Shown here piece after piece: positions 1,465-64,000 of a stretch of 64,000 nt of DNA. The stretch's first letter is position 1; every line of letters begins with the position of its first letter. This DNA is from an uncultured Holophaga sp. (GTDB lineage Bacteria; Acidobacteriota; Holophagae; Holophagales; Holophagaceae). Made by a program: the position numbers and the translations under genes. Location of the stretch: contig OY761614.1 of assembly GCA_963664825.1 (NCBI GenBank), positions 1,280,001 to 1,344,000 on the forward strand. Direction: 5' to 3'. The notes beneath the pieces are model-generated. The model made no database searches, was not told the origin of the DNA, and saw only the letters and a list, made by a program, of their open reading frames with translations.

Positions 1465-1586
1465 AGTGGCTCCTTCTCTTCCATTAAACACGGATTGAGC
1501 CTTTCGAGGCGACCACAGGCTGACGCGGCGCCCCGAGCGGCGCCACATCATTCCAAACGGGTGAAAAGCCCTGGGGGCTGGCAGAC

Positions 1587-2633: not shown

Positions 2634-2643
2634 GGGGATCTCC

Positions 2644-3972: not shown

Positions 3973-4084
3973 GGGGACTCCGGGAAATGGTGGGATGCAG
4001 TCGGAGGATATCAGAGGCAGGGACTAAGGCCCATGCGCCATGCAATGATTACGATGCCTCTCGGGAATGCGCCGTTCCCCTTGA

Positions 4085-4957: not shown

Positions 4958-5050
4958 TGCGACCTCAGTTGAAGGGAAAGCGCTTCGACAAGGATTCCGA
5001 TTGTAGCCGGGAGAGTGGCTCACCCACCGGAAGCAGCCTGAATTTGGTGC

Positions 5051-6958: not shown

Positions 6959-7005
6959 GGGTAAGGGTACCGCGGGGAACCCCACCCGGGGACTGCCAGT
7001 GCGCG

Positions 7006-7572
7006 TCAGCCCATGGAAGCGGTGGGTTGCAATTCCAGATGGGATTGTCCGGTCTCCAGCCCGGGCGCAGCCCCAGGGATGTGAGCCTGGATGAAGGAGA
7101 CAACCTCCGCTGGTTTTATGCCGAGAACAATGGCGAATTCGTCGTACAACAGCTTTTCCGCGGTGGTCATGATCTTGGTATCGGTAGCGTTGAGCCTCTT
7201 ACCCGTCCCCTTTTTGCGGTCCTTCTCGAGGTACAGGGTCTTTATCAACTTCACCAATTCATGGCAATCGCCACTGTGAAGTTTCACGGAATACTCCCGA
7301 TCCCGCTCGCGATCATCACTGATCCAGATGGATTCTTCCTCAGGCATCCCTTGGATCAAACTATTTATTTCGTCCCTGGTCAGGATCGGCCGGATCTTGG
7401 CCACGAGTTCCTCATCGGTTGTGGAGACATAGGTGATCGAATTGGAATCAAAAAAAGGTTTAAGAACATAATATTCTTGTTCCTCGGCGGAACGAAATTT
7501 TTCGGTTCTTATATCCACGATCTTGCATACACCTATCGTATTATACACGACACTGTCATTGATATTAAACAT
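7006..7572 (-). CDS. CarD-family transcription factor
   Basis: MFNINDSVVY...GVCKIVDI...YYVLKP...AEKLLYDEFAIVLGI; visibly AT-rich compared with its neighbours. Confidence 0.85.
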   Translation of the reverse strand: MFNINDSVVYNTIGVCKIVDIRTEKFRSAEEQEYYVLKPFFDSNSITYVSTTDEELVAKIRPILTRDEINSLIQGMPEEESIWISDDRERDREYSVKLHSGDCHELVKLIKTLYLEKDRKKGTGKRLNATDTKIMTTAEKLLYDEFAIVLGIKPAEVVSFIQAHIPGAAPGLETGQSHLELQPTASMG

Positions 7573-7941
7573 TTTTATCACCAGTGCCTGCCTAAAAGCC
7601 ATGTACTTATGGCAGCAAGCAATCCTCTGTAATCAGTATAGCAAAAATGACTCTTCGCTGTAAGGTTCCAGGACAAACCCTGTGGAACCGATTCCCACTT
7701 GGATGTGGAAGTTGTCCCAACCCTGGCTTCGGAATGACCCTGGAGGGAATGGGGTGGGCATGGGAACTCCTGGGCACGACGAGGGCTTGAACGCCTCACG
7801 GAACAGCGAGTAGGGGTTGCGGGAAGCGATGTGTTTGCATGAAACTATCGGTTAACTCCTGCCAAGCAGCCTTGGGAAAGACTCGCGGCAGCTTAAAAGG
7901 CGCATCTCCTTGACGAACCTATATTCCCAGCGAGGACACCC

Positions 7942-9573: not shown

Positions 9574-9696
9574 GCCACCTTTCGACCTGGGGGACGGCCT
9601 TCCCCTCTGACCTCCATCACGCTTTTTCCCACCTCGGGGCGCGCCTCCTTCACAATGAAGACTGGTGCGCCCCAAAGGGCGAAACAGGAGCCGGTG

Positions 9697-11538: not shown

Positions 11539-11683
11539 GCGGCTTGTCGTTTTGGAAGCAGGTTCTTTCCAGAATGTGAGTTGGATAAGGATGCCCGAGC
11601 ATGAGGACCTGAAGGCCTTCCCATAACCAGTCGCTGTCCCGCAAAAACCCTACTTCCGCTTCAATCGCCTCAGCCACCAGTCT

Positions 11684-11926
11684 TCAACGAAGGCCTTGCT
11701 CGGAGCGTAAGGGAAACGCATCCGGTTCGTCGGCATTCTTCATGGCCTTGTGCAGGGCTCTGGCCGTCTGGGCGTCATAGGCATGCAAGGCAAATAACCA
11801 GATTTCGCGCAATTCGAAACGCGTAAGCTGCTGTCCCCAGATGGACCTCAGAACCACCTCGACCTGATGCCCTGGTTCCACCACAAGGTGCCGGTAGCTC
11901 TCTTCGACAAGCTGGGTCTGGATCAC
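11684..11926 (-). CDS. Small hypothetical protein (80 aa)
   Basis: GTG start preceded by a strong GAGGAGG RBS; no recognisable motif. Confidence 0.4.
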   Translation of the reverse strand: MIQTQLVEESYRHLVVEPGHQVEVVLRSIWGQQLTRFELREIWLFALHAYDAQTARALHKAMKNADEPDAFPLRSEQGLR

Positions 11927-12097
11927 TTTCCCTCCTCGGCAGAGGCCGGACCAGGAAACGGTTTCGACGGTTCGGCGGGGCCCACAGGACCCCAGCCCAG
12001 GCCCCCTATTCCGGACCTGGGCTGGAGACCTCATCCAAGGCCATCTCTCGCACCCGCCCATCAGTAGGCAGGTATTCACAGAGGCGTAGCGCCTTGA

Positions 12098-12742
12098 CTA
12101 CTGCAGTTTGAGGGTTCCCACCTTAAAAGTCACATCCTCCGTCTTGCGCTTGAGGATTGTGCCGATGCTCTTGGGAATGACCCGTGCCTTGATAACAGTC
12201 AAGGGCACGTCTCCTGGCGAGGCATTGAGGCTGGCATCGAAATCGAGGGCCACCTGGAGGACGACGCCGCTGCAGTCCTTGGCCGTGGCACCCTGTTCAG
12301 GCCCGTACAGCTCTTCATCTGTCTTCTGGAAGATTCCCACCATCAGCTTGCCGTTGGAGACCCCTCCCGCCTGCAAATTGGTAGGGATCTCCTTGTGGTC
12401 GGAGGTGAAGGGCTCTTTGTCCAGAAAGACACCGCCGTCCTTGTAGTAGCCCCCCGGCTTTCCCTGGGGATCCGGGAGGCGGGCGAACTTCACCAGGGCG
12501 GGATCCGCCTGGAGCGTGAACCCAATGCCTCGATACGTGCTGCCATCCGATGGACCCACCAAGTTCAATACGAGGTGCGTGTCGGTGCTGGCGGCGTCCT
12601 TGAGTAGCTTCCACTCCCCCGCAGCGGCGGTGGGATCTGTGTAGGAGAGGCTCTTGGCCGGGGCGAGGTGGTGATCACTGCCGCCACACCCCATGAGAAG
12701 AGAAAGGGCCAGAGGAACAACAATGGAATACAGCGTTTTCAT
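12098..12742 (-). CDS. Lipoprotein, possible cohesin-like beta-sandwich
   Basis: Lipobox LLMG-C19; beta-rich; starts 9 bp downstream of the M4 peptidase stop. Confidence 0.75.
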   Translation of the reverse strand: MKTLYSIVVPLALSLLMGCGGSDHHLAPAKSLSYTDPTAAAGEWKLLKDAASTDTHLVLNLVGPSDGSTYRGIGFTLQADPALVKFARLPDPQGKPGGYYKDGGVFLDKEPFTSDHKEIPTNLQAGGVSNGKLMVGIFQKTDEELYGPEQGATAKDCSGVVLQVALDFDASLNASPGDVPLTVIKARVIPKSIGTILKRKTEDVTFKVGTLKLQ

Positions 12743-12751
12743 ATATAAACC

Positions 12752-15121
12752 TCAGTGATTGAATGCGTTGTTGAAGCCTTCGAGAAAGAGTTCGAGACAG
12801 ACGTCATCCACCCCAGCGATGCTGTCGTAAAGCTTGGCGGCGGGATAGACGTCGATGCCGTTGTACGCAAGCGCCAAAGCACCCATGTCGCAGGCGTCCG
12901 TATCGGTGTCGCTGTCGCAATCCAGGCTGACCCCGAAGACCATGTTCACGGCATATGCCCTGGGATCCTGCTTGCTGATGGCCTTGACGGGCCAGTAGGC
13001 GCCGTTGGAGGCCACGGGGGCTATGAAATTGCCGTCCACAAACTTGCCGCCCTCTGGATAGCGAGCGGACAGACCGCCCAGATCCCAGGTGACCTCAGTA
13101 TTTTTCGCATTGGCCACCGTGGGTGGGGGCAGGGGCGTCGGCACCAGGGCGGGGGCTACGACAATGTTTGGATTGCGGAACGGCGAATTGGCAACGGCCT
13201 TGAAGGTCACGAGAACGGGATCCTGTCCCACTTCAGCCCGCCCCACATTGATGGCGGCGAAGGCGTTCTTTACTGCGGCCACCTCGGGGGAGTCTGCGGC
13301 TCCCGTCGGTGGGTGGAGTTCGGTTGCCGCAGCCAGGACGGCTTCCCGGATCGCGTGATAGTCCGCCGAGGAATCGGTCACCGTGCTCATGGCCCGGTAC
13401 CAGATGCGTATGGCATTATCGTTGCCGATGCCCGTCATCCCTGCGGGCAGATAGGATGAGTAGGTTTCCTTGGTCGGGTCGCTGGCGGCCCCTTGACTCA
13501 GGAAATAGAAGGCCCGGTTCGCGGGACCGTTGCTGTAGTGGCAATCCTCCATCCCCATCCCGTCAAACCAATGATCGAAGCTGAGCCCATCTTTGCTGGG
13601 CTTGTAGAGCCAGCGCGTGGGAGTGAGTCCGTCCTTGGAAAGCTGGGATCCCAGGGTCCAGAGGTAATCCGCCCTGTTGTGGCCGCCGGGTGCCTTGGTG
13701 GTGGCATCGGGAACGATCGGGCCGGTGCCATCGGCACCCCAGACGTAGTACTTAACCATGGTGGCATGGATGTCCGAATTGCCTTCATTGAGCCCTTGGC
13801 TCTCGCCGCCGCTCAGATTGGCCGTGAAGGTCATGACGCCGTGGCTCATCTCGTGAGCGGCCACGTCGAGGCAGGTGAGCGATCCCGTCGGGGCCCCGTC
13901 TCCGTAGTGCATGACGAACAGGGATGGAATCCATGCCGCGTTATTCAAAACCCGACCTGCCCCCATACCGTCATCCATGTGCACGATACTCACGGGCGAA
14001 GTCCCCTGGCCATCGATGCCGCCATCGCGTCCCAGGACGTTCTTGTAATAGTCCCACGTCATCTGGAGGGCATAGTGGGCGTCCACGGCAGCCGTTTGGC
14101 CGTGAGCATCGTATAGCCGGTCGGGCCATTCATTCTCCCAGTCGAATGGCTGCCCATCGCCCCAGGTGTTGCTGGCGTTGGTGAAGGGCATGGTCCCGCT
14201 ATTGTTTGTCGAGTTATAGTTATCGTAACAGACGGTCTGGAAGCCAATTCCTCCATACTCCGGGAGCGGCAGGCCCTCGGGTGGAGCGATGGACCAAGGA
14301 TGGGGCTTGGTGGCCCGGGTCGTATCGCGGAGGATGAACTGGTTAGAACTGTCCGTCAACTGCACGGTGTTGAGACTCACAGTGCCGTTGTACTGGCTGG
14401 TCCCCGTTCCCACGGCCGGCGTATCCGCGTAATGCACCCCGTCCCACTTCTTCAAGATCTCGCCTGTTTGTCCATCGATGATGAACTCAGTAACTGCAAA
14501 ACCATGTGTTTTTGCCTGTATGGCGCTGATCTGGAAGGCCCAGCGATAGGGATCCGTCTTCTTCGACGTGCCCACGCTGTAGACCGGATCGACCACGAAG
14601 CGCCCGCTGGCGTCGCGCTTCATCTTGATGCCATCCTGGTACTTGGTGGGGAACACCAGGCGCTTGACCTGCAGGGGCCAGAGCTTGCCTTCCTGGGGGA
14701 GGTTCCTGGTGACGATCTCCCGAATCTTGGATTCGTCAAGCAGGGCAACGGAATCGAGACTGATGTCTTTCTGAACGGTGGCGTGGGGGGGCAGCATGCG
14801 ACCCGTCGCGTCCATGTGACCGAGCACGATGCCGTTGTAGACTTCCACTCCACGAAAGGTCTGGTGGCAGCGGACGTGAGTCTGACCAAAGGCATCCGTG
14901 ACCTGGTTGAACGCCTGAAGGCCATCCAGCATTCCAAGCCCCAGGGTGGTTTTGTCTCCTTCCAGGCTGCGGGTGAGTTGAGCCACGCGCTGTGACTGCT
15001 GGCCCCGGATGAATGCGAGCATGTCGTGGGGGAGGGGCCGCAGGCCCTCGCCCGCTGACAGCAGGCCGGTCACTGTTAGCAGTGCCAACAGCGTGAGATG
15101 TGGACGGACGCGACGTGCCAT
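12752..15121 (-). CDS. Secreted M4 (thermolysin-family) metallopeptidase with C-terminal Ig-like and dockerin-like regions
   Basis: Signal peptide; FTP propeptide (DAFGQTHVRCHQTFRGVEV); AAVDAHY, NNAAW, AHEMSHGV, GLNEGNSD; RBS AAGGAG. Confidence 0.93.
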   Translation of the reverse strand: MARRVRPHLTLLALLTVTGLLSAGEGLRPLPHDMLAFIRGQQSQRVAQLTRSLEGDKTTLGLGMLDGLQAFNQVTDAFGQTHVRCHQTFRGVEVYNGIVLGHMDATGRMLPPHATVQKDISLDSVALLDESKIREIVTRNLPQEGKLWPLQVKRLVFPTKYQDGIKMKRDASGRFVVDPVYSVGTSKKTDPYRWAFQISAIQAKTHGFAVTEFIIDGQTGEILKKWDGVHYADTPAVGTGTSQYNGTVSLNTVQLTDSSNQFILRDTTRATKPHPWSIAPPEGLPLPEYGGIGFQTVCYDNYNSTNNSGTMPFTNASNTWGDGQPFDWENEWPDRLYDAHGQTAAVDAHYALQMTWDYYKNVLGRDGGIDGQGTSPVSIVHMDDGMGAGRVLNNAAWIPSLFVMHYGDGAPTGSLTCLDVAAHEMSHGVMTFTANLSGGESQGLNEGNSDIHATMVKYYVWGADGTGPIVPDATTKAPGGHNRADYLWTLGSQLSKDGLTPTRWLYKPSKDGLSFDHWFDGMGMEDCHYSNGPANRAFYFLSQGAASDPTKETYSSYLPAGMTGIGNDNAIRIWYRAMSTVTDSSADYHAIREAVLAAATELHPPTGAADSPEVAAVKNAFAAINVGRAEVGQDPVLVTFKAVANSPFRNPNIVVAPALVPTPLPPPTVANAKNTEVTWDLGGLSARYPEGGKFVDGNFIAPVASNGAYWPVKAISKQDPRAYAVNMVFGVSLDCDSDTDTDACDMGALALAYNGIDVYPAAKLYDSIAGVDDVCLELFLEGFNNAFNH

Positions 15122-51992: not shown

Positions 51993-52011
51993 GTATCAAT
52001 ATAACTGATAC
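51993..52011. promoter_or_regulatory. Palindromic operator candidate
   Basis: GTATCA-ATATAAC-TGATAC upstream of the DUF6036-like pair. Confidence 0.5.
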
Positions 52012-52255
52012 TCGCTCAAACGCCAGATCACCCAGGGCGGCATCCGCAAGATGGACATGACCGCAGACACCTCTCCACCCTGGCCTCGCTGCCCCCCACT
52101 ATCCCGTTCCATTTGCCCCGACCGGGGGGGGACTGACATGGCGCTCTCGGCCTGAGCGTCCAAGGATCCGTGCAGCCATTCCCCCGGGAGCCGCGCTAGG
52201 CTGGAGAGGGATTCTGGCGGTCGCCCGGCAGGCCCATCCTCAATCCGGAGTATCC

Positions 52256-53647
<1,392 letters not shown>

Positions 53648-53737
53648 AGCGAGGGCATCCGGAAGCCAGAATCGGCAGACCCGCGGAGAGGGCCATGTCT
53701 CGCTCCAAGACCACGCCTTGAGGCTTGATCTGCAAGT

Positions 53738-53803
53738 TGAAACAAGGGAAGGTGTTATTTTACGGAAGGCCCACTCGCTAAAATAAGCCCGATCCTTGTT
53801 TTA
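53738..53803. promoter_or_regulatory. Two 9-7-9 palindromic operator boxes upstream of fic
   Basis: TGAAACAAG-N7-GTTATTTTA (53738-53762) and TAAAATAAG-N7-CTTGTTTTA (53779-53803). Confidence 0.65.
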
Positions 53804-53818
53804 ACTTCCGAGGCATCC

Positions 53819-54979
53819 ATGAAGCGCGCCATGACGGGCCACTACGCAGTCCAAACCACGCAGGGCGAGAGCGTCCAGGCCTTCATCCCGAACCCCTTGC
53901 CTCCGGATCCCCCCATCCAATGGACACCGGACCTCCTGGCCGCCCAGCAGCGAGCCGCACTGGCCCTGGGAAGATTGGACGGCGTCACCACGCTGCTGCC
54001 GGACCCCGCCTTGTTCCTATACAGCTACGTGCGTAAGGAAGCCGTGCTTTCCAGTCAAATTGAGGGCACCCAATCCTCCCTCTCTGAACTGATGGCCTTC
54101 GAAAACCAGGGCGCACCTGGGGTTCCCCTTGATGATGTCGTCGAGGTATCCAACTACGTCGCCGCCATGAATCACGGAATCCAACGCCTTCGGGAAGGTT
54201 TTCCCCTTTGCCTCCGCCTCGTCAGGGAGATCCATGAAGTCCTCCTCGCCTCCGGGCGGGGGAGTGCCAAGCAACCAGGTGCGTTCAGGACCAGTCAGAA
54301 CTGGATCGGTGGGAGCCGTCCAGGAAACGCTAAGTTCGTGCCCCCTCCCCACGAGGCTCTTCCCGGATGCTTGAAGGCGTGGGAGGCCTTCCTCCATGGG
54401 GGTCCCGGGATCGCCGACCCTTTGACTCGCGCAGCCCTGGCCCATATCCAGTTCGAGACCATGCACCCGTTCCTGGATGGCAATGGTCGAGTCGGTCGCC
54501 TGATGGTCTCCCTGCTGCTCAGCGCGGAAGGCGTTCTTCGAGAGCCGCTGCTCTACCTCAGCCTTTTCCTCAAGCAGCACCGCGAGACCTACTACGAACT
54601 TCTCCAGTCCGTCCGCATGGAAGGAGACTGGGAGGCGTGGCTGGATTTCTTTTTCCAAGGTGTGACCGAGACTTCGGAGAGCGCCGTCGCCACGGCACAG
54701 CACCTCCTGCGCTTATTTGCCGAGGACCGGAAACGCATCCAGGGAACCGGACGGATTGCGGGTTCTGTTCTCCAGGTCCACCACCACCTCCAGGGACGCC
54801 CCCTTTGTTCAGCCTCAACGATCGGGCTTGCCGAGAATCTCTCCCAAGCAACCGTGAACAAAGCCCTCAAGACACTCGTGGAGATGGGCCTCGTCCGCGA
54901 AATCACCGGAGGGCAGCGGAACCGGCTCTTTGCGTACAGCCAAGCCCTGCAGATCCTGTCGGAAGGTACAGAGGCCTGA
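53819..54979 (+). CDS. Fic-family protein (class II, N-terminal inhibitory helix, C-terminal HTH)
   Basis: SSQIEG inhibitory motif; HPFLDGNGRVGR; C-terminal SQATVNKALKTLVEMGLVREITG. Confidence 0.93.
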   Translation: MKRAMTGHYAVQTTQGESVQAFIPNPLPPDPPIQWTPDLLAAQQRAALALGRLDGVTTLLPDPALFLYSYVRKEAVLSSQIEGTQSSLSELMAFENQGAPGVPLDDVVEVSNYVAAMNHGIQRLREGFPLCLRLVREIHEVLLASGRGSAKQPGAFRTSQNWIGGSRPGNAKFVPPPHEALPGCLKAWEAFLHGGPGIADPLTRAALAHIQFETMHPFLDGNGRVGRLMVSLLLSAEGVLREPLLYLSLFLKQHRETYYELLQSVRMEGDWEAWLDFFFQGVTETSESAVATAQHLLRLFAEDRKRIQGTGRIAGSVLQVHHHLQGRPLCSASTIGLAENLSQATVNKALKTLVEMGLVREITGGQRNRLFAYSQALQILSEGTEA

Positions 54980-55061
54980 TGGGGTTTCATGCACAACGAG
55001 AAACTCACGGATTCAGAACAGCATCCCCAGCCTCCAGTCCTGACACGGTTCTAGTGGCCCT

Positions 55062-55472
55062 TCAAGATATGCCATTGTCCGCGAGGTATTCCCTCGGAGA
55101 ACGCATGTCCACACCATCCCGGATCGCTTCGGGGAAATGTCCCAGGTTCCCCGTCACCAGCACGGCGCCCGTAGCTTTGGCCAGCGCCAGAAAGACAAGA
55201 TCATCGCTATCGGGTCCGTTCAGCGGCCAGGGAGCCGGTTCTGGCTCATGGAAGGCGACTTGGAGCAGGCGGGGCAGCCATGCCGGAGGAAATCCCTTTG
55301 GCCTGAACTTGGGACGGTTCAGCACCTCCCGGTACTCCGCCGCAATGGAGGCGCACACGTGAACCGGAGTCTGGCGCAACAGCACCTTTTCCACGATGCG
55401 GGCCAAGTCGCTTTCCGGCTTCAGTGCCGCCGATACAAGGATATTGGTGTCCAGGACAAGCGCCCGACTCAC
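55062..55472 (-). CDS. PIN-domain toxin
   Basis: LVLDTNILVSA, EYREVL, DSDDLVFLALA, LVTGN. Confidence 0.9.
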   Translation of the reverse strand: MSRALVLDTNILVSAALKPESDLARIVEKVLLRQTPVHVCASIAAEYREVLNRPKFRPKGFPPAWLPRLLQVAFHEPEPAPWPLNGPDSDDLVFLALAKATGAVLVTGNLGHFPEAIRDGVDMRSPREYLADNGIS

Positions 55473-55768
55473 GCCGTGCGCCCCCGGCCCTTGGCGGCCT
55501 TCCGCGCCGCCCGAATTTCCGCGTCAATCTCATCAGCCGTGAGCTGGTCCAACCCGCTCTCCACGGCCCGAGCCTGGTCCTGGCGCAACGCCGCCACCGC
55601 CGCCAGGCCTTCCGCAAGGTCCAACATCCCCATACGGGTTTCAGGCGTCACCGGGAGCAGCAGGAACTCCTGTTCCCGACCCGCCAGCAGCCATGGTTCC
55701 GTGGAGACACCGGCCCCCAGGGCCTTGGCACCTTCACGTTGGAAATCCCGGAGGGGTATGGTCTTCAT
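55469..55768 (-). CDS. Putative antitoxin (Phd-like N-terminus)
   Basis: MKTIPLRDFQ; C-terminal LTADEIDAEIRAARK; 4-bp overlap with the PIN gene; GGAGG RBS. Confidence 0.8.
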   Translation of the reverse strand: MKTIPLRDFQREGAKALGAGVSTEPWLLAGREQEFLLLPVTPETRMGMLDLAEGLAAVAALRQDQARAVESGLDQLTADEIDAEIRAARKAAKGRGRTA

Positions 55769-55782
55769 GGGGCACCTCCATT

Positions 55783-55809
55783 CCATTGTCGTCGTTTCGG
55801 CGACAATGG
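55783..55809. promoter_or_regulatory. Palindromic operator candidate of the antitoxin-PIN operon
   Basis: CCATTGTCG-N9-CGACAATGG just upstream of the RBS. Confidence 0.6.
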
Positions 55810-55984
55810 CAACCCGTGAAGGAAACCGGGCCTCACGCCGGTGCTGGAATTCCAGGGCAAGCTGTATTGGCCGGGGATTCACGGGGATGGACGAGGATAA
55901 AAGCAAGCCGGGAATTCGTGAGATTTGATCCCGAAACGTCATCCCCGGCTAAGGGCGGTTGGCACGGTAGCTTGCCATTTTTGT

Positions 55985-56014
55985 GACCTGCCATATATTT
56001 GATTATGGCAGGTC
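55985..56014. promoter_or_regulatory. Perfect 11-bp inverted repeat, vapBC operator candidate
   Basis: GACCTGCCATA-N8-TATGGCAGGTC, with further TGCCA/TGGCA half-sites at 55960, 55973 and 56027. Confidence 0.65.
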
Positions 56015-56093
56015 TTGTGGTGGCCTTGCCATGAACATCAACCGTTGTCCCGATGGGACCACCATGCCGCTGATGCTGGCGAAGGTGACACAA

Positions 56094-56345
56094 ATGTCCT
56101 GCTCAAACTTCACTCTTCAGATCGCGCAGGGAGGAAGGGTTGTGATTCCGGCCAAGGCCAGACAAGCGCTGGGGTTGGCTGAAGGGGTACGTGTGACGCT
56201 GGAGGTTTACAAGGATCGCCTCACGATCGTCCCTTTGGATCGGGCTCTCGATGTAATGCTGGCGAAGGCCAGGAGCCTTCTCCAGGGTCCATCGCTTGCA
56301 GACGAGCTGATGGCGGAACGACGCAAGGAGGCTGAACGTGAATAA
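56094..56345 (+). CDS. AbrB/MazE-family antitoxin (VapB)
   Basis: IAQGGRVVIPAKARQALGLAEG; SLADELMAERRKEA; overlaps the vapC start. Confidence 0.88.
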   Translation: MSCSNFTLQIAQGGRVVIPAKARQALGLAEGVRVTLEVYKDRLTIVPLDRALDVMLAKARSLLQGPSLADELMAERRKEAERE

Positions 56346-56727
56346 AGTCGTGCTCGATGCGAGTGCCGTCTTGGCCCTTCTTCAGGGCGAGGAGGGAGCG
56401 AATCGGGTCCGTGATGCGCTGCGCTTGTCGGTGTGCTACATCAGCGCCGCAAACCTTGCCGAGGTCGCGGGGAAGTTGTTTGAGCGCCTCGGTAAGAGGG
56501 ATCAGGTTCGGGAACTGCTCACGATTCCGGGGCTGGAGGTGCTTCCGGTGACGGAAGAGGATGCCTTTCTAGCAGCGGAATTGACGGTCCAAGCGAAGGC
56601 CTTGGGACTCTCGCTGGGGGATCGTTTGTGCCTCGCATTGGGCATGCAGGAAGGGGCGAAAGTGCTCACGGCAGATCAGGTTTGGCTCCAGCTCAAGGTG
56701 GGCCCGAAGGTGGAGTCGATCCGGTGA
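56338..56727 (+). CDS. vapC: VapC PIN-domain toxin
   Basis: VVLDASAVLA, ISAANLAEV, GLSLGDRLCLA, VLTADQVW. Confidence 0.92.
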   Translation: MNKVVLDASAVLALLQGEEGANRVRDALRLSVCYISAANLAEVAGKLFERLGKRDQVRELLTIPGLEVLPVTEEDAFLAAELTVQAKALGLSLGDRLCLALGMQEGAKVLTADQVWLQLKVGPKVESIR

Positions 56728-56826
56728 GGCTCTTGATTACGGGAGCCAGCTTCCGCTGAACCTATCGGCCTCTCCGTGCCATCCGCGACTCCGCGTGGAT
56801 TTCTCTCGTTTTGATACGGCTCGCCT

Positions 56827-57321
56827 TCACTCCAGTTTCGAGAAGCCTGAAGCATCGGTCAGGAGCCCCTTCCATCCACATTCCATGCTCACGCTCATCT
56901 TCCGGCCGGGGCGCAATATGCCGCTGCGCCAGTCCTGGACAAGGGGCAGGGCCAAGTAGCGCGGCGCTTGGCCGGGGGCCTGGAAGCTCAACACCACCAG
57001 GTCCGCCGTGCGGCGGGGAATGGTGTCCTTCACCCAGCGGCGATAGGCCACGGACAAAGGCAGGGCGTTCACGATCACGTTTTCGTCCGTGGGGTGGAGT
57101 TCCAGCGGTGTCCAGGCCGCTTTCGGCCATCGCCCCCGGGGCCCGGCCCAGACCTTCACCAGCGTCTGAGGCGGCAACTCCTTCACCCTCACCCGCAGGT
57201 TGAGCTTGGACGTGCCCGAACGCCTCGGAGTCTCCCAGGCCACCAGGGCGGCGAGGCTGGCCAGCAGCAGCCCGCACCAGAGCACGTAGAACCAGCGGCG
57301 GCGGTAATGGATGGATTCCAT
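56827..57321 (-). CDS. Hypothetical membrane-anchored protein
   Basis: N-terminal transmembrane helix WFYVLWCGLLLASLAALVAW; GGAGG RBS. Confidence 0.65.
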   Translation of the reverse strand: MESIHYRRRWFYVLWCGLLLASLAALVAWETPRRSGTSKLNLRVRVKELPPQTLVKVWAGPRGRWPKAAWTPLELHPTDENVIVNALPLSVAYRRWVKDTIPRRTADLVVLSFQAPGQAPRYLALPLVQDWRSGILRPGRKMSVSMECGWKGLLTDASGFSKLE

Positions 57322-57329
57322 GGTTCCTC

Positions 57330-57716
57330 CTAGACTGCTCCAGCCCGCAGAACCGCGGCCAGTTCCTCACGGCTGGCTTCCGCCTTGGCCGCCTTCCATG
57401 CATTCGCATCGAGTTCGCCGAGCCAGGCCACATCTTCGCGGAGCATCACGCCATTCATCTCCAGGGTCACAGCGGCGGCCAGGGTGCCCACCCGCTTATT
57501 CCCATCCACGAAGGGATGGTTGAGGATGAGGGAGAACATGAGCGCGGCCGCGTAATCGAACAGGTCTCCCCCACCGTAAAGGTAGTGGTGCTGGGGCGAA
57601 GCCACCGAGCTTTCCAAGGCCCCAGCGTCCCGGAGCCCATGGGAGCCTCCCCATGCCTCGATCTGGCTGTAATGGAGGGCCTCGATCTCCTCCGAGGTCA
57701 GGAACAGGGGTATCAC
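57330..57716 (-). CDS. doc: Doc (death-on-curing) family toxin
   Basis: GGSHGLRDAGALES; HPFVDGNKRVG (Doc-type Lys). Confidence 0.92.
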   Translation of the reverse strand: MIPLFLTSEEIEALHYSQIEAWGGSHGLRDAGALESSVASPQHHYLYGGGDLFDYAAALMFSLILNHPFVDGNKRVGTLAAAVTLEMNGVMLREDVAWLGELDANAWKAAKAEASREELAAVLRAGAV

Positions 57717-57946
57717 CTGGCGAGACTCTTGAGCACAGGGGCCAGTTTCCGCTCCGTGCTTTCCTTGGCCTTGAGGAACAGAGCCAGACGTTCGGCAGCC
57801 GGAAGCGCCACAGGAGTCACGATCAGCGATTTCCCATCCGTCCGCACCTCGAGCGGCGTCTCAGGCGTGAGGCCAAGCAGTTCCATGACGTTCTTCTCGA
57901 CCACAAGGGCATATCCATTGCCGTGTCGCTTCAGATTGCGGAGCAC
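57713..57946 (-). CDS. AbrB-family antitoxin
   Basis: LKRHGNGYALVV...DGKSLIVTPV; overlaps the doc start. Confidence 0.85.
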   Translation of the reverse strand: MLRNLKRHGNGYALVVEKNVMELLGLTPETPLEVRTDGKSLIVTPVALPAAERLALFLKAKESTERKLAPVLKSLAR

Positions 57947-57957
57947 ATCGCACCTCG

Positions 57958-57975
57958 GTAATACAAGTGTATTAC
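57958..57975. promoter_or_regulatory. Perfect palindromic operator of the abrB-doc operon
   Basis: GTAATACA-AG-TGTATTAC. Confidence 0.7.
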
Positions 57976-58010
57976 ATCCGATTCCGTCGGCAAGACGGCC
58001 CGCAGGAACC

Positions 58011-58280
58011 CTATAACTGCATCACATAGCCCGGCAGGGCCAGGATCGCCTCCCGCAGGGGCCGTTCGGCCTGTTCACTAGGCAGGGTCACCCAGAAGGT
58101 GTAGGCGATGTAGGCGCCGTGTTCGTGGGCCGCGTGAATACCATCCCCCGCCGCTTGAGGCCCCAGATGCTCAAGGATCAAGGCCTCCACGCGAGCGGGC
58201 TCCAGTACGCCGGCCTTGCCGATCACCTTGAGCGGCACGCGTGTGGGATAGGTGATCTCGGGGCGGGGGCAGCTTTCCAT
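58011..58280 (-). CDS. DUF493/YbeD-like protein
   Basis: ITYPTRVPLKVIG...GAYIAYT...LPGYVMQL. Confidence 0.75.
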   Translation of the reverse strand: MESCPRPEITYPTRVPLKVIGKAGVLEPARVEALILEHLGPQAAGDGIHAAHEHGAYIAYTFWVTLPSEQAERPLREAILALPGYVMQL

Positions 58281-58316
58281 GGACCCAGCTTAGCAAAAAC
58301 GCTGCTTCATCCGAGC

Positions 58317-58333
58317 TTGGCACTGCCTTCGCT
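58317..58333 (+). promoter_or_regulatory. sigma54 -24/-12 promoter of the first pilin
   Basis: TTGGCACTGCCTTCGCT, GG-N10-GC, about 35 bp before the ATG. Confidence 0.65.
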
Positions 58334-58367
58334 TTTACGTACAGTTGGACCAGCATCGGGAGGGCAT

Positions 58368-58790
58368 ATGCGTCATCGCAGCAAGGCTCAAGGGTTCAGC
58401 CTCATCGAACTCCTGCTGGTCCTGGCCATCATCGGCATTATCTCTGGCATCGCCATCCCGGCCTTCCTGGGTCAGCGCCGCCGGGCCCGGGTCATCGGGG
58501 ATGCCATGGCCAACGCCAAGGTAGTCAGCATGCAACTGGAAGCCCGCAAGGCCGATAACGGTGTCTACGGAACTGCCGGGTCGACCTTCACCTGGATCGC
58601 CGGTTCCGCATCCGATCCCACGTTCCTGCCGGGATTCTCCCCAAGCGGCAATAGCAAGATGAACTACAGCCTCGACATCGGCACCAGCGGGCTTGCCTAC
58701 ACCCTGACCGTTGTCGATCCCAGCCTGCCAGGAAGCCCCACGGCCTACCAGACCGATCAGACCGGGGCCGAACTGGCGCGATTACACTAG
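58368..58790 (+). CDS. Type IV pilin (PilE-like or second pilin)
   Basis: Prepilin site QG|FSLIELLLVLAIIGIISGIAIP with Glu5. Confidence 0.92.
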   Translation: MRHRSKAQGFSLIELLLVLAIIGIISGIAIPAFLGQRRRARVIGDAMANAKVVSMQLEARKADNGVYGTAGSTFTWIAGSASDPTFLPGFSPSGNSKMNYSLDIGTSGLAYTLTVVDPSLPGSPTAYQTDQTGAELARLH

Positions 58791-58992
58791 CCGCTTATCT
58801 ATGGTGCAGACACTCAGCGTGCTATATAATTTTACAACCAACGACGCTCCTCGACACGTGCCTGCCCCAATGCGTCACTTTTGGCACCCAGGGAAACCGG
58901 TCTTGCGAATCAGGCTTCCATTGACGTGTATCTTTCCCCACAAGATATTGGTTCCCTGCGTTAACATCCCCCCCTTCACTCTTCACCGAACC

Positions 58993-59009
58993 TTGGCCTG
59001 TTTCCTGCA
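58993..59009 (+). promoter_or_regulatory. sigma54 -24/-12 promoter of pilA
   Basis: TTGGCCTGTTTCCTGCA, GG-N10-GC, about 40 bp before the ATG. Confidence 0.65.
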
Positions 59010-59047
59010 TTCAGAGCCAATGTTCCATTTCCCCAAAGGAGAACCAC

Positions 59048-59500
59048 ATGAAGAAGCAGTCAGGCTTCACCCTCATCGAGCTGCTGCTGGTGCTCGCCAT
59101 CATCGGCATCATCTCCGCCATCGCCATCCCGGCCCTCCTGGGCCAGCGTGAGCGCGCCAAGGCCAAGGCCACCCAGGGCAACGCCGACGCCATCGCCGGT
59201 GAGCTCGCCCGCATTAACGACACAGCCAAGGAAGCAGGGACGACGCTAAATGCCACTGAGGTGGTTACCTCGGCGCTCCTGCTCTCGAATTACAACACTC
59301 CGAATACAATGAATCCCTACAATGGTGGCAGCGCGCCCTTTGTTTCCGCTGCTACGGCTGGTACCGGCCAAGTAGCTCTCGAAGGCACGGGGTATGTGGA
59401 TCCTACCACCAATCAGTCTTACTCTGCCGTCATTGTCCGAGCCCTTTACCTTCAGGGTGGTGTATCAAAGACCACCACTAAGGTCATCGCACTCGACTAA
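59048..59500 (+). CDS. pilA: Type IVa pilin, probable major pilin
   Basis: Short leader MKKQSG|FTLIELL; strong RBS AAGGAG; own sigma54 promoter and terminator. Confidence 0.88.
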   Translation: MKKQSGFTLIELLLVLAIIGIISAIAIPALLGQRERAKAKATQGNADAIAGELARINDTAKEAGTTLNATEVVTSALLLSNYNTPNTMNPYNGGSAPFVSAATAGTGQVALEGTGYVDPTTNQSYSAVIVRALYLQGGVSKTTTKVIALD

Positions 59501-59518
59501 GTTTTGGGGTATCCCATC

Positions 59519-59550
59519 AAGCACCCCCGGAGCCCTGGGGGTGCTTTTTT
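59519..59550 (+). terminator. Rho-independent terminator
   Basis: AAGCACCCCC...GGGGGTGCTTTTTT. Confidence 0.88.
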
Positions 59551-59654
59551 GTCGATACGGGTGGGGTGCTCACGCATCCTGCCCACTCCATGCGTCGATA
59601 GGTGATCTCACAGAAACCCGCTAACCTTTCCATGGATTCTGCTGTAGGAACGAT

Positions 59655-61970
59655 ATGCCATTTACAAAACTCCTGGGGCTAGGCAATGGGGGCCCTTCCG
59701 GTCAAACATCACTCTTCCGCAAGGATCGGGTATGGCCGCCCTGGACCCTGGGTCTTCTGCTGGCTGTGGCGGTCATTCTGGCCTACTCCAATAGCCTCAA
59801 TAGCCCCTTCACCTATGATGATTACTCGGATGTGTTGGAACAGGTGACAATTCGCCACCTTTGGCCCTTGAGAGATGTCTTCTACCTCCCTGGCAAGGGC
59901 TTCATGAACCGCCCTCTCGTCAACCTCAGTTTCGCCCTTGATTATGCGCTGGGCGGGCTCCGTCCCTTTGCCTTCCATCTCACCAACCTCGCCATCCATA
60001 TCTGCGCCTCCCTGGCCCTCTTGGGCGTCATCCGGCGCAGCCTTTCTCTGCCGGTCTTCGGGGAGCGTTTCAAGGCCCACATTTCGGCGCTGGCCTTGGT
60101 GCCAACAGCCTTTTGGGCTTTGCACCCGCTTGCGACAGAATCTGTGTCCTACATCACCCAGCGCTACGAATCCATGATGGCGCTCTTCGTGCTGTGCACC
60201 TTTTATACGGTGCTCCGAAGCGTGACATCGCCCCGACCTCGCCTATGGCAGGCCTGGGCGGTTCTGAGTTGTCTGCTGGCTTTGGGCAGCAAGGAGGTGG
60301 CGGTTTCCTTGCCTGTGCTGGTGCTACTCTTCGACCGCTTCTTCCTTGCCGGATCCTTCCGGGAGATATGGAGGAAACGGAAACTGCTTTATATCGGAAT
60401 GCTCCTGAGCTGGGGCATCTTCGCCTATATCCAACTGCATGCTGTGCCACGAACCTTCGCGGCCTCTGGGTTCACAATTCCCTGGTGGCGCTATGCCCTC
60501 AACCAACCCAAGGTGATCCTCCACTACCTGCGTCTGGCTGTATGGCCCCATCCCCTGGTCTTCGACTACTTCTGGCGGCCGGAGACGGCTTGGAAACCCT
60601 TGGTGCCGGGGATGCTGATGCTGGCAGTGCTCCTGGGCTTGACCCTTTGGGCCTTGATCCGAAGCCCCCGGTTGGCCTTCCTTTCCATCTTTTTCATGGC
60701 CATCCTCGCCCCCACGTCCAGCGTCATGCCCATCCTTGATCTGGCGGTGGAGCACCGCATGCACTTGCCCCTGGTGGCCGTGATCCTTGCAGTGGTCCTC
60801 GGCCTGTTCGCTCTCCTGATGCGCCTAAAGGCGCGGATCCCGAAGGCTTCCACACTTGCGCGCCACCTGCTCCTGCCTGGGCTGGCCTGCATCCTGGCTT
60901 GTCTAGGGATCCTGACCTTCCTCCGCAACGAGGACTATCGGGATCCCCTTGATCTCTGGCGCAGCGTGACCCTCGCGGCTCCCAACAACCCTCGAGGTTA
61001 CAATAATTATGCATACCAGTTGGCGGAGCGGGGACGCCAGGTGGAGGCGGCTCAGGCCTACGACAAAGCCGTGGCTTTGGCTCCCAACATGGGGCTCTTC
61101 CAGTCGAACTATGGCCTCACTCTTGCCAAGCTTGGGCGCTACCAGGAAGGTCTGGAGCACATGCGCATCGCCGTGAAGTCGGAACCATCCAATTCCAAAT
61201 ACATCAATAACCTTGGATTCGTATTATTAATGAAAGGGTCTTTGGATAATGCCGCTACCTGCTTTAAAACGGCACAGCAGGTCAACCCTCAAGATGAGGT
61301 GTCCCTAGCAGGCTTGGCATCGGTTCTCTATGTGCAAGGGGATTTGGCCAAAGCCCTGGAGTATATTCAGAAAGCCATCAGAATCAATCCTTACGTTCCA
61401 AATCTACGAGAGCATCAGGCTCAGATCCTCATAAAAATGGGAAACACGGAGGATGCCCGCAAGGCCTTCCAGGCCACTATCCGACTCCAGTCCAGCGCAG
61501 AAAAGATCTCAGATATTGGATGGTCCATGCATGCCCACGGTTTGGAGCCCGACGCCTTGGCAGCTTTGCGGCAAGCCCTGGCGATGGTGCCGACCCACAT
61601 TAAGACCCAGATCCGTCTCGCTTGGTTGCAAGCCGCCAGTTCCGATCCTTCCGTCCGCAACGGTACTGAGGCGGTGCGTCTGGCCAAAGCGGTGCTTCAC
61701 ACCCAGCGCCCCATCCGATCTCCAGAAACCTTAGATCTGCTTGCAGTGGCCCAGGCAGAGGCTGGGCGCTTCCCGGAGGCCCAAGCTTCCCTCCGAGAGG
61801 CGCTAGCCAACTCCAAGGACCGGAAGGAGCCCTGGATTCCGAGTTTGGAGGGGCATTTGGCCCTTTTTGAGAAGAACCAGCCGTACCATGAGAATCGTCT
61901 ACCCAAGTCGGCTCACGTTGACCAGCCGGGCGGTTCCGTAATGGTTGCATCCACAAAGAGGAACCCATGA
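59655..61970 (+). CDS. TMTC-like GT-C membrane glycosyltransferase with C-terminal TPR repeats
   Basis: YSNSLNSPFTYDD, RPL, FHLTNLAIH, HPLATESVSYITQR, SKE, EHRMHLP; polytopic N-terminal half, then TPRs (PNNPRGYNNYA, YINNLG). Confidence 0.8.
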   Translation: MPFTKLLGLGNGGPSGQTSLFRKDRVWPPWTLGLLLAVAVILAYSNSLNSPFTYDDYSDVLEQVTIRHLWPLRDVFYLPGKGFMNRPLVNLSFALDYALGGLRPFAFHLTNLAIHICASLALLGVIRRSLSLPVFGERFKAHISALALVPTAFWALHPLATESVSYITQRYESMMALFVLCTFYTVLRSVTSPRPRLWQAWAVLSCLLALGSKEVAVSLPVLVLLFDRFFLAGSFREIWRKRKLLYIGMLLSWGIFAYIQLHAVPRTFAASGFTIPWWRYALNQPKVILHYLRLAVWPHPLVFDYFWRPETAWKPLVPGMLMLAVLLGLTLWALIRSPRLAFLSIFFMAILAPTSSVMPILDLAVEHRMHLPLVAVILAVVLGLFALLMRLKARIPKASTLARHLLLPGLACILACLGILTFLRNEDYRDPLDLWRSVTLAAPNNPRGYNNYAYQLAERGRQVEAAQAYDKAVALAPNMGLFQSNYGLTLAKLGRYQEGLEHMRIAVKSEPSNSKYINNLGFVLLMKGSLDNAATCFKTAQQVNPQDEVSLAGLASVLYVQGDLAKALEYIQKAIRINPYVPNLREHQAQILIKMGNTEDARKAFQATIRLQSSAEKISDIGWSMHAHGLEPDALAALRQALAMVPTHIKTQIRLAWLQAASSDPSVRNGTEAVRLAKAVLHTQRPIRSPETLDLLAVAQAEAGRFPEAQASLREALANSKDRKEPWIPSLEGHLALFEKNQPYHENRLPKSAHVDQPGGSVMVASTKRNP

Positions 61971-62932
61971 CCTTGGAGGCCGAGACACCTGAGGGGAAGC
62001 CCCTCATCAGCATTGTCGCTCCCTGTTTTAACGAGGAGGGGAATGTCGAACTCCTCCATGAACGGATCGATGCTGCCATGGCTGGGCTTCCGGGTTATCG
62101 CTACGAGTTGATCTTCATCGATAACAAGTCCCAGGATCGGACGGTCGAAAAGATCAAGGTCATGGCCGCCAAGGACAAACGCGTCAAGCTCATCGTCAAC
62201 GCCCGGAACTTCGGCCATATCCGTTCGCCCCATCATGCCCTCCTCCAGGCCAAGGGCGATGCCGTGGTCATCATCGCTTCGGATCTCCAGGACCCCCCTG
62301 AACTCCTTCCGAAATTTGTCCAGAAGTGGGCGGAGGGCTTCAAAATCGTGGTTGGAGTCAAGACCTCCAGCCAGGAATCCCGCCTCATGTGGCTGGTGCG
62401 CCGAGCCTATTACCGACTTCTTTACCGCATCGCAGATATCCAGGTGGTGGAAAATTTCACGGGCTTCGGGCTCTATGACCGACAGGTGGTGGAGATCACC
62501 CGCCAGTTCGAAGATCCCTATCCATATTTCCGCGGGATCATTTCAGAGATCGGATTCGACCGGGCGGAAATACCTTTTGAGAAGCCCCAGCGCCATCAAG
62601 GCATCACCAAGAACAATTTCTATACCTTGTACGATATCGCCATGCTGGGAATCACCAGCTACTCCAAGCTCCCTATCCGGCTGGCCACCATGGCGGGATT
62701 CGCCTTGGCTTTTTGCAGCCTATTGGTGTCCATTGCCTACTTGGCTCTGAAACTGGTTTTCTGGAACCGCTTCAGCTTCGGTATGGCGCCCGTGCTTATT
62801 GGCCTCTTCTTCTTCTCCTCGGTGCAGCTCTTTTTCATCGGACTCCTCGGCGAGTATGTGGCTGCCATTCATACCCAAGTGATGAAGCGCCCCCATGTCG
62901 TGGAACAGGAGCGGATCAATTTTGATGACTGA
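61967..62932 (+). CDS. GT2 polyprenyl-phosphate glycosyltransferase (GtrB/ArnC-like)
   Basis: ISIVAPCFNEE, DNKSQDRT, RNFGH, SDLQDPP, TGFGL; two C-terminal transmembrane helices; IGLLGEYV. Confidence 0.92.
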   Translation: MTLEAETPEGKPLISIVAPCFNEEGNVELLHERIDAAMAGLPGYRYELIFIDNKSQDRTVEKIKVMAAKDKRVKLIVNARNFGHIRSPHHALLQAKGDAVVIIASDLQDPPELLPKFVQKWAEGFKIVVGVKTSSQESRLMWLVRRAYYRLLYRIADIQVVENFTGFGLYDRQVVEITRQFEDPYPYFRGIISEIGFDRAEIPFEKPQRHQGITKNNFYTLYDIAMLGITSYSKLPIRLATMAGFALAFCSLLVSIAYLALKLVFWNRFSFGMAPVLIGLFFFSSVQLFFIGLLGEYVAAIHTQVMKRPHVVEQERINFDD

Positions 62933-63350
62933 ATCGAAAGGCCTCATTGAATGGTGCCGTCTGCAATGGGATGGCAGCGAGAAGGCCCGATTCCTGGTGG
63001 TAGGGGTCTACAACACGCTTTTTGGGTATGTCGTTTTCGCGGGGCTCTACCTGCTTCTCGGGCACCGAGTCCACTACTTGGTGGTCATGGTGATAGCCCA
63101 CATACTGGCGGTATGCAATGCATTCGTCGGCCACCGCATTCTAACCTTCCGCGTCAAGGACCATCTTCTCAGGGACTTCCTTCGTTTCAACCTCAGTTAT
63201 ACAGGGGTGTTGGTCTTCGGCATCTTTGCCCTTCCCGCCATGGTGGAAGGGCTTCACGCCCATCCCCTCTCGGCGCAGGCGGTCGTGATCGCCCTTACCA
63301 CTCTGGGTAGTTACATCCTGCACAAACGGATTTCCTTCCACCGCAGCTAA
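62925..63350 (+). CDS. GtrA-family flippase
   Basis: RFLVVGVYNT, NAFVGHRILTF, YILHKRISF; four transmembrane helices; overlaps the GT2 stop. Confidence 0.88.
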   Translation: MTESKGLIEWCRLQWDGSEKARFLVVGVYNTLFGYVVFAGLYLLLGHRVHYLVVMVIAHILAVCNAFVGHRILTFRVKDHLLRDFLRFNLSYTGVLVFGIFALPAMVEGLHAHPLSAQAVVIALTTLGSYILHKRISFHRS

Positions 63351-63370
63351 GGGCTTATTGTGGCCTTTCC

Positions 63371-63490
63371 CTACTTCTTCAGATCTTCCTTTAAGTTCCT
63401 CGCTCCCTGATGCCCGGAATCGATCTTGAGGGCTTTGTCGGCGGCCTGGCGGGCTTCATCCTTCTGCCCCAAGTCCTTGGGGATCTGCCC
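63371..63490 (-). pseudogene. Remnant TPR-like C-terminal gene fragment
   Basis: KDLGQKDEARQAADKALKIDSGHQGARNLKEDLKK* with no credible 5' part. Confidence 0.4.
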
Positions 63491-63685
63491 CTTCCGCCAC
63501 CAGGTGCCCAATAGCCCATTGCAGATGGTCTCCACCACTCTCGCGTAGGTCTTCACAGGACCCAATAGGCGTTGGCCAAACGGCGCTTCTGGTCCAAGCC
63601 CCCACAGCCAAAACCAAGCACGGGGGAATGCACGTGCTTCGCGAGGCGATAACACCATCGTGTCGCCTCGCCGAAAATCAGTCTT

Positions 63686-64000
63686 TCAGCCCTTCAAAAG
63701 CACGGCACGCCCCGTCTTGGCGAAACGGGTATCGAAGGTCAGCAGCCTGGAACAGCCCCGATGGCGGGCCACAAGGGCAATGAGGTTGTCGGAAAGCCCG
63801 GTCCCAGGGGTGGCCAGCTCCAGGGCCTCGCGCACCAGGGGCGCGGCTTCCACTTCGATCCCTGCGGTGTTGAGCAAGCGGCCCAGGGCTTCATGTACGC
63901 GGGTGGCATCCCACCCAGGAGCCCCCTTCAGCACCCATCCCAGTTCAACGAATACGAGGATGGGCAGGAAGAGGCCCGGCCCGCTGGAGGCTTCCATGAT
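63686..64000 (-). CDS. PIN-domain (VapC-like) toxin, partial; its 5' end lies beyond the window
   Basis: ILVFVELGWVL, LSDNLIA, GCSRLLTFD. Confidence 0.85.
   Translation of the reverse strand: MMEASSGPGLFLPILVFVELGWVLKGAPGWDATRVHEALGRLLNTAGIEVEAAPLVREALELATPGTGLSDNLIALVARHRGCSRLLTFDTRFAKTGRAVLLKG

Follow-up and report, generated by a model that had tools for sequence, protein, structure and literature searches.

A candidate pilin O-glycosylation cassette with a TMTC-like GT-C/TPR enzyme in an uncultured Holophaga genome

The DNA studied here is a stretch of 64,000 nucleotides (the window; contig OY761614.1, positions 1,280,001 to 1,344,000) from an uncultured Holophaga species. The genome is one contig of 3.47 Mb with 63.7% G+C, and the closest protein relatives come from Holophaga and Holophagaceae. 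Close to the end of the window, five genes follow one another on the forward strand (Table 1). Two encode type IV pilin-like proteins, the third a 771-residue membrane protein with a C-terminal array of tetratricopeptide repeats (TPRs), and the last two a GtrB-like family 2 glycosyltransferase (GT2) and a small GtrA-family protein. An initial annotation, made from the letters alone, had proposed that they form a pilin O-glycosylation system. The five genes and their overlaps, as described there, are confirmed by the open reading frames (ORFs) and Pfam matches. The gene for the 771-residue protein overlaps the GT2 gene by 4 nucleotides (nt), and the GT2 gene overlaps the GtrA gene by 38 nt, or by 8 nt if an in-frame ATG at 62925 is the real start. 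The three genes had been placed right after pilA; the order stands, but they are not flush with it, as a spacer of 154 nt with a GC-rich hairpin and T-run intervenes. A comparable hairpin and T-run is found 3′ of pilin 2 in all five co-directional loci examined. Since the element sits in the spacer and is kept in these loci, pilin 2 seems to have a terminator of its own. Four metagenome runs compared with positions 52000–64000 gave fragmentary contigs only and nothing usable on the cassette.

Table 1. Coordinates of the pilin genes, the glycosylation cassette and associated features in the window
Feature	Position	Strand	Description
Pilin 1	58368..58790	+	140 aa, no Cys; Pfam N_methyl 4.7e-8
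Pilin 2, probable major pilin (PilA-like)	59048..59500	+	150 aa, no Cys; Pfam N_methyl 5.2e-10
Intrinsic-terminator-like hairpin and T-run, 3′ of pilin 2	59519..59556	+	12-bp stem, 8 GC pairs, then TTTTTTGT
GT-C/TPR protein, whole gene	59655..61970	+	771 aa; Pfam: TPR families only
GT-C membrane domain, residues 1–420	59655..60914	+	11 predicted transmembrane helices; DD motif in first periplasmic loop
C-terminal TPR array, ~residues 421–740, predicted periplasmic	60915..61970	+	Pfam TPR_2 4.2e-30 and others
GtrB-like GT2, putative polyprenyl-phosphate glycosyltransferase	61967..62932	+	321 aa; two C-terminal transmembrane helices; Glycos_transf_2 5.4e-26
GtrA-family small membrane protein, putative lipid-linked-sugar flippase	62895..63350	+	151 aa; GtrA_DPMS_TM 5.7e-19

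Both pilins score above the cut-offs of Pfam N_methyl and NCBIfam IV_pilin_GFxxxE and begin with a prepilin leader, G-F-(T/S)-L-I-E, followed by the hydrophobic α1 helix. A disulphide-bonded loop is usual in T4a pilins; as neither protein contains cysteine, both lack it. The 22 Ser/Thr that the initial annotation counted in the last 92 residues of PilA are present in pilin 2 (7 Ser and 15 Thr), and the corresponding count for pilin 1 is 21. In G014, a relative from another genus of Holophagaceae, pil1 directly follows pilB, pilT and pilC, with pil2 convergent (gene names read from translations); pil1 and pil2 are therefore pilus-locus pilins. Across 15 family pilins, almost every one of the first 34 positions of pil2 is invariant, and the globular part is variable. 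Pil2-type pilins occur in 34 of the 41 family genomes, and tandem duplicates of the gene are frequent in relatives. The sequence TGGCACTGCCTTCGC at 58318–58332, 36 nt 5′ of the pilin 1 start, differs at one position from the sigma-54 consensus, TGGCAC-N5-TTGC. The window contains 46 matches to this consensus (up to two mismatches) against 68 expected, and since such matches are not enriched the site is a hint only.

The 771-residue protein was modelled with AlphaFold2 from an alignment of 61 relatives (predicted local distance difference test score, pLDDT, 90; predicted template modelling score 0.89). It shows 11 long helices in the stretch from residue 29 to 427 and TPR hairpins beyond them, up to residue ~739. 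The N-terminus is positively charged, as read from the sequence, which points to the cytoplasm. The best PDB matches of the full-length protein, by sequence and by fold, are TPR proteins, including the TPR domain of OGT. As TPR proteins swamped the full-length profile and Foldseek searches, the membrane domain was folded (pLDDT 85.6) and searched alone. Residues 1–420 match no Pfam family even at E ≤ 10, and nothing useful was found among PDB sequences either with the single sequence or with a profile of six sequences. With the membrane-domain model, the first 37 matches listed by Foldseek are all GT-C enzymes; the best, ArnT (5f15), has a weak E-value of 3e-3. VIA-align was run with the same domain against 48,161 chains. 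The top 20 rows are all GT-C enzymes (Z 9.6–19.4) and the next, an unrelated chain, has a Z of 6.2. The best match is Pmt1/Pmt2 (Z 19.4 over 334 residues, root-mean-square deviation 4.1), followed among others by AglB and STT3 (18.6), Pmt4 (17.9), PglB (17.2) and ArnT (17.1). The model thus places the membrane part in the GT-C fold, of GT-C_A type; Foldseek was among the checks that the initial annotation had proposed (against TMTC, GT105), and both searches uphold its GT-C assignment. In the ESM Atlas, which was used as a lead only, PMT_2-tagged bacterial clusters score 0.98 and a eukaryotic DUF1736 cluster ranks 23rd with 0.94. Prediction of a complex of the full GT-C protein with pilin 2 yielded no usable answer (score 0.01).

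The motifs picked out from the translation in the initial annotation are all present, at F52-T-Y-D55-D56, R86-P-L88, F107-HLTNLAIH115, H157-PLATESV164 and S212-K-E214. D55-D56 lies after the first transmembrane helix (residues 29–47), in the first extracytoplasmic loop. In 66 aligned family members D55, D56, R86, H108, N111, H115, H157, P158, Q169, R170, E172, K213, E214, D304, W307 and R368 are invariant. These residues can be set against the TMTC motifs given in the accessible part of one study (PMC7801869): M1 (DD) has its counterpart in D55-D56, M2 (..YRP) in N-R86-P87, M3 (RxD) in R170-x-E172, M4 (KE) in K213-E214, M5 (DW) in D304..W307 and M7 (ERxxY) in E366-x-R368, with Y370 in the family consensus.

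The initial annotation had called the protein TMTC-like. The defining model of that family, PF08409 (TMTC_DUF1736), matches neither the 771-residue protein nor any other protein of the genome, nor, according to the precomputed Pfam column, any of 120 listed relatives; proteins passing it occur in 18 of 151 Acidobacteriota genomes. Residues 1–420 were compared by phmmer (E ≤ 10) with 12 PF08409-positive Acidobacteriota ORFs, and four matched, at 75.1 (L143), 66.5 (L141), 30.2 (L142) and 24.6 bits (L140). The alignment with L141 covers query residues 13–379 in one stretch. In the alignment with the PF08409-positive proteins the DD, RPL, FHxxN...H, HP..E.V, KE, WP..L..DY and E..MYLP stretches coincide, and, as calculated from the coordinates, query residues ~270–330 lie opposite the DUF1736 stretch of L141 and L143. 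As it fails PF08409 yet aligns with proteins that pass it, the enzyme family is, on these comparisons, a divergent sister of the DUF1736 proteins, TMTC-like and not a Pfam-defined member. The earlier label is thus borne out by architecture, motifs and the 75.1- and 66.5-bit alignments, but not by the Pfam model. Animal TMTC1–4 (CAZy GT105) resemble the window protein in having 11 transmembrane helices and a C-terminal TPR array on the non-cytoplasmic side. They differ in donor and acceptor: TMTCs use dolichyl-phosphate-mannose and act on the extracellular cadherin (EC) domain, whereas the window enzyme would use an undecaprenyl-phosphate-sugar and act on a pilin.

The two genes that follow would supply such a donor. 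The best PDB match of the GT2 is the Synechocystis GtrB homologue sll0501 (1.1e-48 over residues 14–310), with ArnC (7.4e-30) and archaeal dolichyl-phosphate-mannose synthase (3.2e-16) further down. By its sequence it is clearly a GtrB-like enzyme, with a GT2 catalytic domain and a C-terminal transmembrane hairpin, as had been annotated. The NCBIfam models PgfS (4.8e-58) and ArnC match as well, both below their equivalog cut-offs, and for this reason the sugar of the GT2 is not assigned. The GT2 is 80% identical to the orthologue in G032 (locus L097). The third gene was annotated as a flippase of GtrA type; its product passes Pfam PF04138 (68.9 bits, cut-off 26.1) and is the sole GtrA match in the genome. 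GtrA orthologues come after the GT2 gene in L097 and in locus L100 of G004. Elsewhere the genome contains two PMT_2-type GT-C genes, one Wzy_C gene and one GtrB paralogue with 28% identity. This context, with the genes for a GtrB-like synthase and a GtrA protein overlapping, supports a polyprenyl-phosphate-linked donor for the GT-C enzyme. The arrangement is that of the GtrA/GtrB/GtrC modules for O-antigen modification, in which a GtrB-like synthase and a GtrA flippase stand beside a periplasmic transferase and the genes likewise overlap. In those modules the third component is GtrC and the genes adjoin prophage or O-antigen genes, whereas in the window it is a TPR-bearing GT-C enzyme of TMTC/TfpW type and the cassette adjoins pilin genes.

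TfpW, the pilin D-arabinofuranosyltransferase of Pseudomonas aeruginosa group IV (Pa5196/PA7), is the closest described counterpart in design. According to the available portion of the preprint describing it (10.1101/2020.04.19.049825), TfpW has 646 residues, a cytoplasmic N-terminus, 11 transmembrane helices with a DDx motif in the first periplasmic loop, and a large periplasmic TPR domain. Its gene lies directly 3′ of the major pilin gene pilA. The best templates were ArnT and, for the TPR part, the OGT TPR domain; the sugar donor is lipid-linked and a GtrA-like protein belongs to the pathway. Compared by that description, each of these features apart from the length is reproduced by the window protein, for which the lipid-linked donor is predicted from the neighbouring genes. 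There are also differences. The donor would come from a GtrB-type GT2 in the window, against a PRPP/DprE1/DprE2 arabinose pathway for TfpW. No gene resembling tfpX was identified in the window. The loop-4 motif of TfpW, YX6PFX7P in the same portion of the paper, is retained only as Y291-X6-P298 (Y291-LRLAVW-P298-H-PLVFDYF-W307), with the Phe replaced by His and the distal Pro by Trp. TfpW also adds oligomers. A pilin substrate for this enzyme design is thus already known, and the design is not new. The initial annotation cited TfpW for the blocking of phage, but overlooked that TfpW is itself, by the description available, an 11-helix GT-C enzyme with periplasmic TPRs. The novelty claimed for the cassette is reduced accordingly, because TfpW shares both design and genomic position. 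The available text of the same paper also places the gene for TfpO/PilO of P. aeruginosa group I right after pilA (10.1101/2020.04.19.049825). TfpO/PilO and PglL are membrane proteins that modify pilins, as is proposed here, but they belong to a different family (Wzy_C) and transfer preassembled glycans linked to undecaprenyl diphosphate. The only Wzy_C match of the genome is about 2 Mb away, at genome position 3349887.

Across related genomes, the GT-C gene is accessory. Among 61 of these, the window's included, 14 have a match to the GT-C protein at E ≤ 1e-20, and orthologues of at least 50% identity are present in four only (G032, 66%; G027, 60%; G004, 56%; G034, 50%). G004 is the only one of the eight other genomes of the genus to carry it. 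The window was compared with five other orthologous loci of at least 56% identity (L097, L098, L003, L005 and L100; 56–66%). In all six, pil1 and pil2 adjoin the GT-C gene and a GtrB-like gene lies close by; three of these loci have a detected GtrA. The pairing is kept despite inversion of pil2 (L100), an inverted or convergent GT2 gene (L098 and L005) and exchange of the sugar genes. Pil2 proteins linked to a GT-C gene are 55–79% identical to the window allele, as compared to 39–55% for unlinked ones. In L100 a 741-residue ORF without a Pfam match (5981–8206) lies between pil1 and the GT-C gene, 3′ of the inverted pil2 and on its strand.

The distribution of the cassette is patchy and its divergence fast. 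Between G004 and the window, asnS is 94% identical at the DNA level, the cassette 67–73%, and the GT-C protein 56%. In G007 and G008, of the same genus, asnS, the DUF493 gene and pil1 are kept, but in place of the glycosylation cassette there is other cargo: ABC-2 transporter genes and the gene of a membrane protein that has a spermine-synthase-like domain. Judged by these comparisons the locus behaves like a pilin island. The alternative cargo occupies L131:7000–11847 (G007), L132:7365–9041 (G008) and L134:7251–11739 (G015). It includes large membrane proteins of 697 and 837 residues with a C-terminal spermine/spermidine-synthase-like domain and, in G015, a 648-residue membrane protein without a family. 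The 697-residue protein after the pilin in G007 and the 648-residue protein of G015 were considered as GT-C relatives and rejected, as no relation was detectable.

Upstream of the pilins, a block of about 4.4 kb (53651–58016) separates asnS (52256–53647) from the DUF493 gene (58011–58280, minus strand). The block has no DNA match in G007 and G008, where asnS and the DUF493 gene are adjacent, and matches G004 at 56827–57315 only. From its translations it appears to hold a Fic-domain gene and several small toxin–antitoxin-like pairs. About 9 kb past the window end (L002:10213–16690; genome 1353213–1359690) lies the gene for a T2SSE ATPase with an MshEN domain (613 residues). Next to it in the 3′ direction, and sharing its strand, are ORFs of 166, 188, 632 and 644 residues without Pfam matches. 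These genes may belong to another type IV filament system.

The sugar genes vary between cassettes. L097 adds, after GtrA, a nucleotidyltransferase, a 4,6-dehydratase-type enzyme and a DegT aminotransferase. In L003 the GT-C and GT2 genes are separated by an epimerase gene, and an FkbM methyltransferase and a TPP enzyme are encoded as well; L098 and L005 code for a HAD hydrolase and methyltransferases. The window cassette carries none of these additional genes. Because the cassettes of relatives hold amino-sugar or methyl-sugar genes, we infer that the sugar may be amino- or otherwise modified, and not mannose or a plain hexose. A similar amino-sugar cluster lies about 320 kb away in the same genome (L147; genome 1653000–1669000, genes at 972–12889). 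It runs GT2, TPP enzyme, SDR, DHQ-synthase-like, HpcH aldolase, nucleotidyltransferase, 4,6-dehydratase type, DegT aminotransferase and epimerase, after which come a sigma-54 response regulator (PilR-like) and a 153-residue prepilin-type gene. Its DegT is 57% identical to the DegT of the G032 pilin cassette.

In our judgement the chances are somewhat better than even that the genes form a pilin O-glycosylation cassette that works like Pseudomonas TfpW and is fed by a Gtr-type donor pathway. At the cytoplasmic face the GtrB-like GT2 would use a nucleotide sugar to charge undecaprenyl phosphate, and GtrA would move the lipid-linked sugar to the periplasmic face. There, the TPR array of the 11-helix GT-C enzyme would hold the pilin while the D55-D56 loop serves transfer of the sugar onto Ser/Thr residues in the globular part of pilin 2 and perhaps also pilin 1. 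Transfer would precede entry of the subunit into the pilus. The effect may be surface variation, for example against pilus-binding phages. The interpretation in the initial annotation is supported in part: its reading of the enzymes is sound and the pairing with pilins is kept within one clade, whereas the pilin as acceptor, a single sugar or mannose, and phage shielding are proposals.

A number of observations weigh against this interpretation. The conserved terminator-like element lies between pil2 and the cassette. TPR arrays are also able to bind glycans or proteins other than pilins. Ser/Thr enrichment was considered as a mark of the linked pilins and rejected, as their values (0.18–0.28) overlap those of unlinked pilins (0.07–0.24). 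The orthologous loci are closely related to one another: L098 resembles L005, and a further locus, L004, is the same contig as L100. Independent pairing events are for this reason few, far below six. Within about 8 kb of the G034 copy, which is 50% identical, there is neither a pilin gene nor one for GT2 or GtrA. Finally, the pairing is rare in the wider family. This comprises 2767 proteins at E ≤ 1e-3 among 8000 scored; 616 loci were confirmed in one-genome-per-species contigs and the best 79 of the 616 were examined. They are mostly from Planctomycetota, Verrucomicrobiota and Acidobacteriota, frequently several to a genome. Only 7 of the 79 have a pilin-like ORF at a distance of up to 7 kb: three loci of Holophagaceae type, where it is adjacent, two from Acidimicrobiia, where it is more than 6 kb away, and one each from Planctomycetia and Omnitrophota. 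A GtrB-like ORF (E ≤ 1e-5) is found in five of the 79 and GtrA in one. With these counts, the family taken together cannot be called a pilin family. Co-occurrence with pilins, which the initial annotation had proposed as a check, holds in the six Holophagaceae loci of at least 56% identity and is not general in the family at large. The Omnitrophota contig (L059:4384–7634) carries a distant member of 650 residues with GT-C and TPR parts, in the order GT-C, GT2, pilin, with the GT2 gene convergent and a prepilin-type gene of 118 residues; three more GT2 genes and a UDP-GlcNAc 2-epimerase lie upstream. It may be an independent pilin-linked case.

The same survey bears on a broader role, in which the enzyme would be a general O-glycosyltransferase of periplasmic or surface proteins, its TPR array recruiting many proteins, with the pilins one substrate or just neighbours. 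The very large size of the family, its spread over many phyla, the several paralogues per genome and the 72 of 79 loci without pilins all agree with such a role, as does the behaviour of the eukaryotic relatives TMTC1–4, which in the accessible part of the source act on a domain class and not on a single protein (PMC11292533). We nevertheless regard it as unlikely for the enzyme described here. In the Holophagaceae clade the pairing with both pilin genes is tight and repeated, the enzyme is absent from most relatives that retain the rest of the envelope, and cassette and pilin alleles diverge together.

GtrA and GtrB are the classic partners of enzymes that modify O-antigen, and GT-C enzymes do so in three-component systems, according to the accessible text of one source (PMC11194591). 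The cassette could thus be a Gtr-type module whose GT-C enzyme side-branches the O-antigen of lipopolysaccharide, capsule or another envelope glycan, sharing a variable surface-antigen island with the pilins. The pilin site is a hotspot whose cargo differs between genomes, and TPR arrays are present in polysaccharide export proteins, with weak NCBIfam TPR matches to PgaA and BcsC. This, too, we think improbable: the GT-C enzyme is of the TPR-bearing type that acts on protein acceptors (TMTC and TfpW) and not of GtrC type, the ORF lists and family scans of the window at 52–64 kb and of the next 16 kb contain no polysaccharide synthesis or export genes, and the pilin pairing persists as the surrounding genes change. 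A role in pilus biogenesis or stability, with the TPR domain a chaperone or assembly factor and the transferase dispensable or lipid-directed, is suggested by weak NCBIfam matches, far short of the cut-offs, to TPR proteins of pilus assembly such as PilW/PilF and Tgl (3.9e-20 and 8.3e-10). It is highly improbable given that all catalytic-type residues are invariant, that the GT-C gene is translationally coupled to a pair of genes dedicated to donor synthesis and that most relatives make pilins without the GT-C gene.

Glycosylation of the pilins by this cassette would have a wider bearing. It is possible, at a little less than an even chance in our estimate, that bacterial TMTC-like GT-C/TPR enzymes naturally modify type IV pilins, and that the cadherin O-mannosyltransferases and the enzymes of TfpW design are branches of a single ancient family whose members attach single lipid-donated sugars to folded adhesion modules. 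A link between TMTC and pilins was not found in a full-text literature search, which gave only an unrelated match, and the literature searched contained no tested bacterial member of the TMTC-like GT-C/TPR family. If the one-family reading is true, this chemistry could be reconstituted with the Holophagaceae cassette, which has its own GtrB and GtrA and would make up a minimal, self-contained set. Confirmation would provide a self-contained five-gene system for a very large bacterial family related to the human TMTC O-mannosyltransferases, and would tie the TMTC-like family to TfpW, the one characterised bacterial enzyme of the same design. The pilin loci of Holophagaceae resemble the pilin islands of Pseudomonas, in which alleles travel with alternative accessory cassettes, and so bear on pilus variation in environmental Acidobacteriota.

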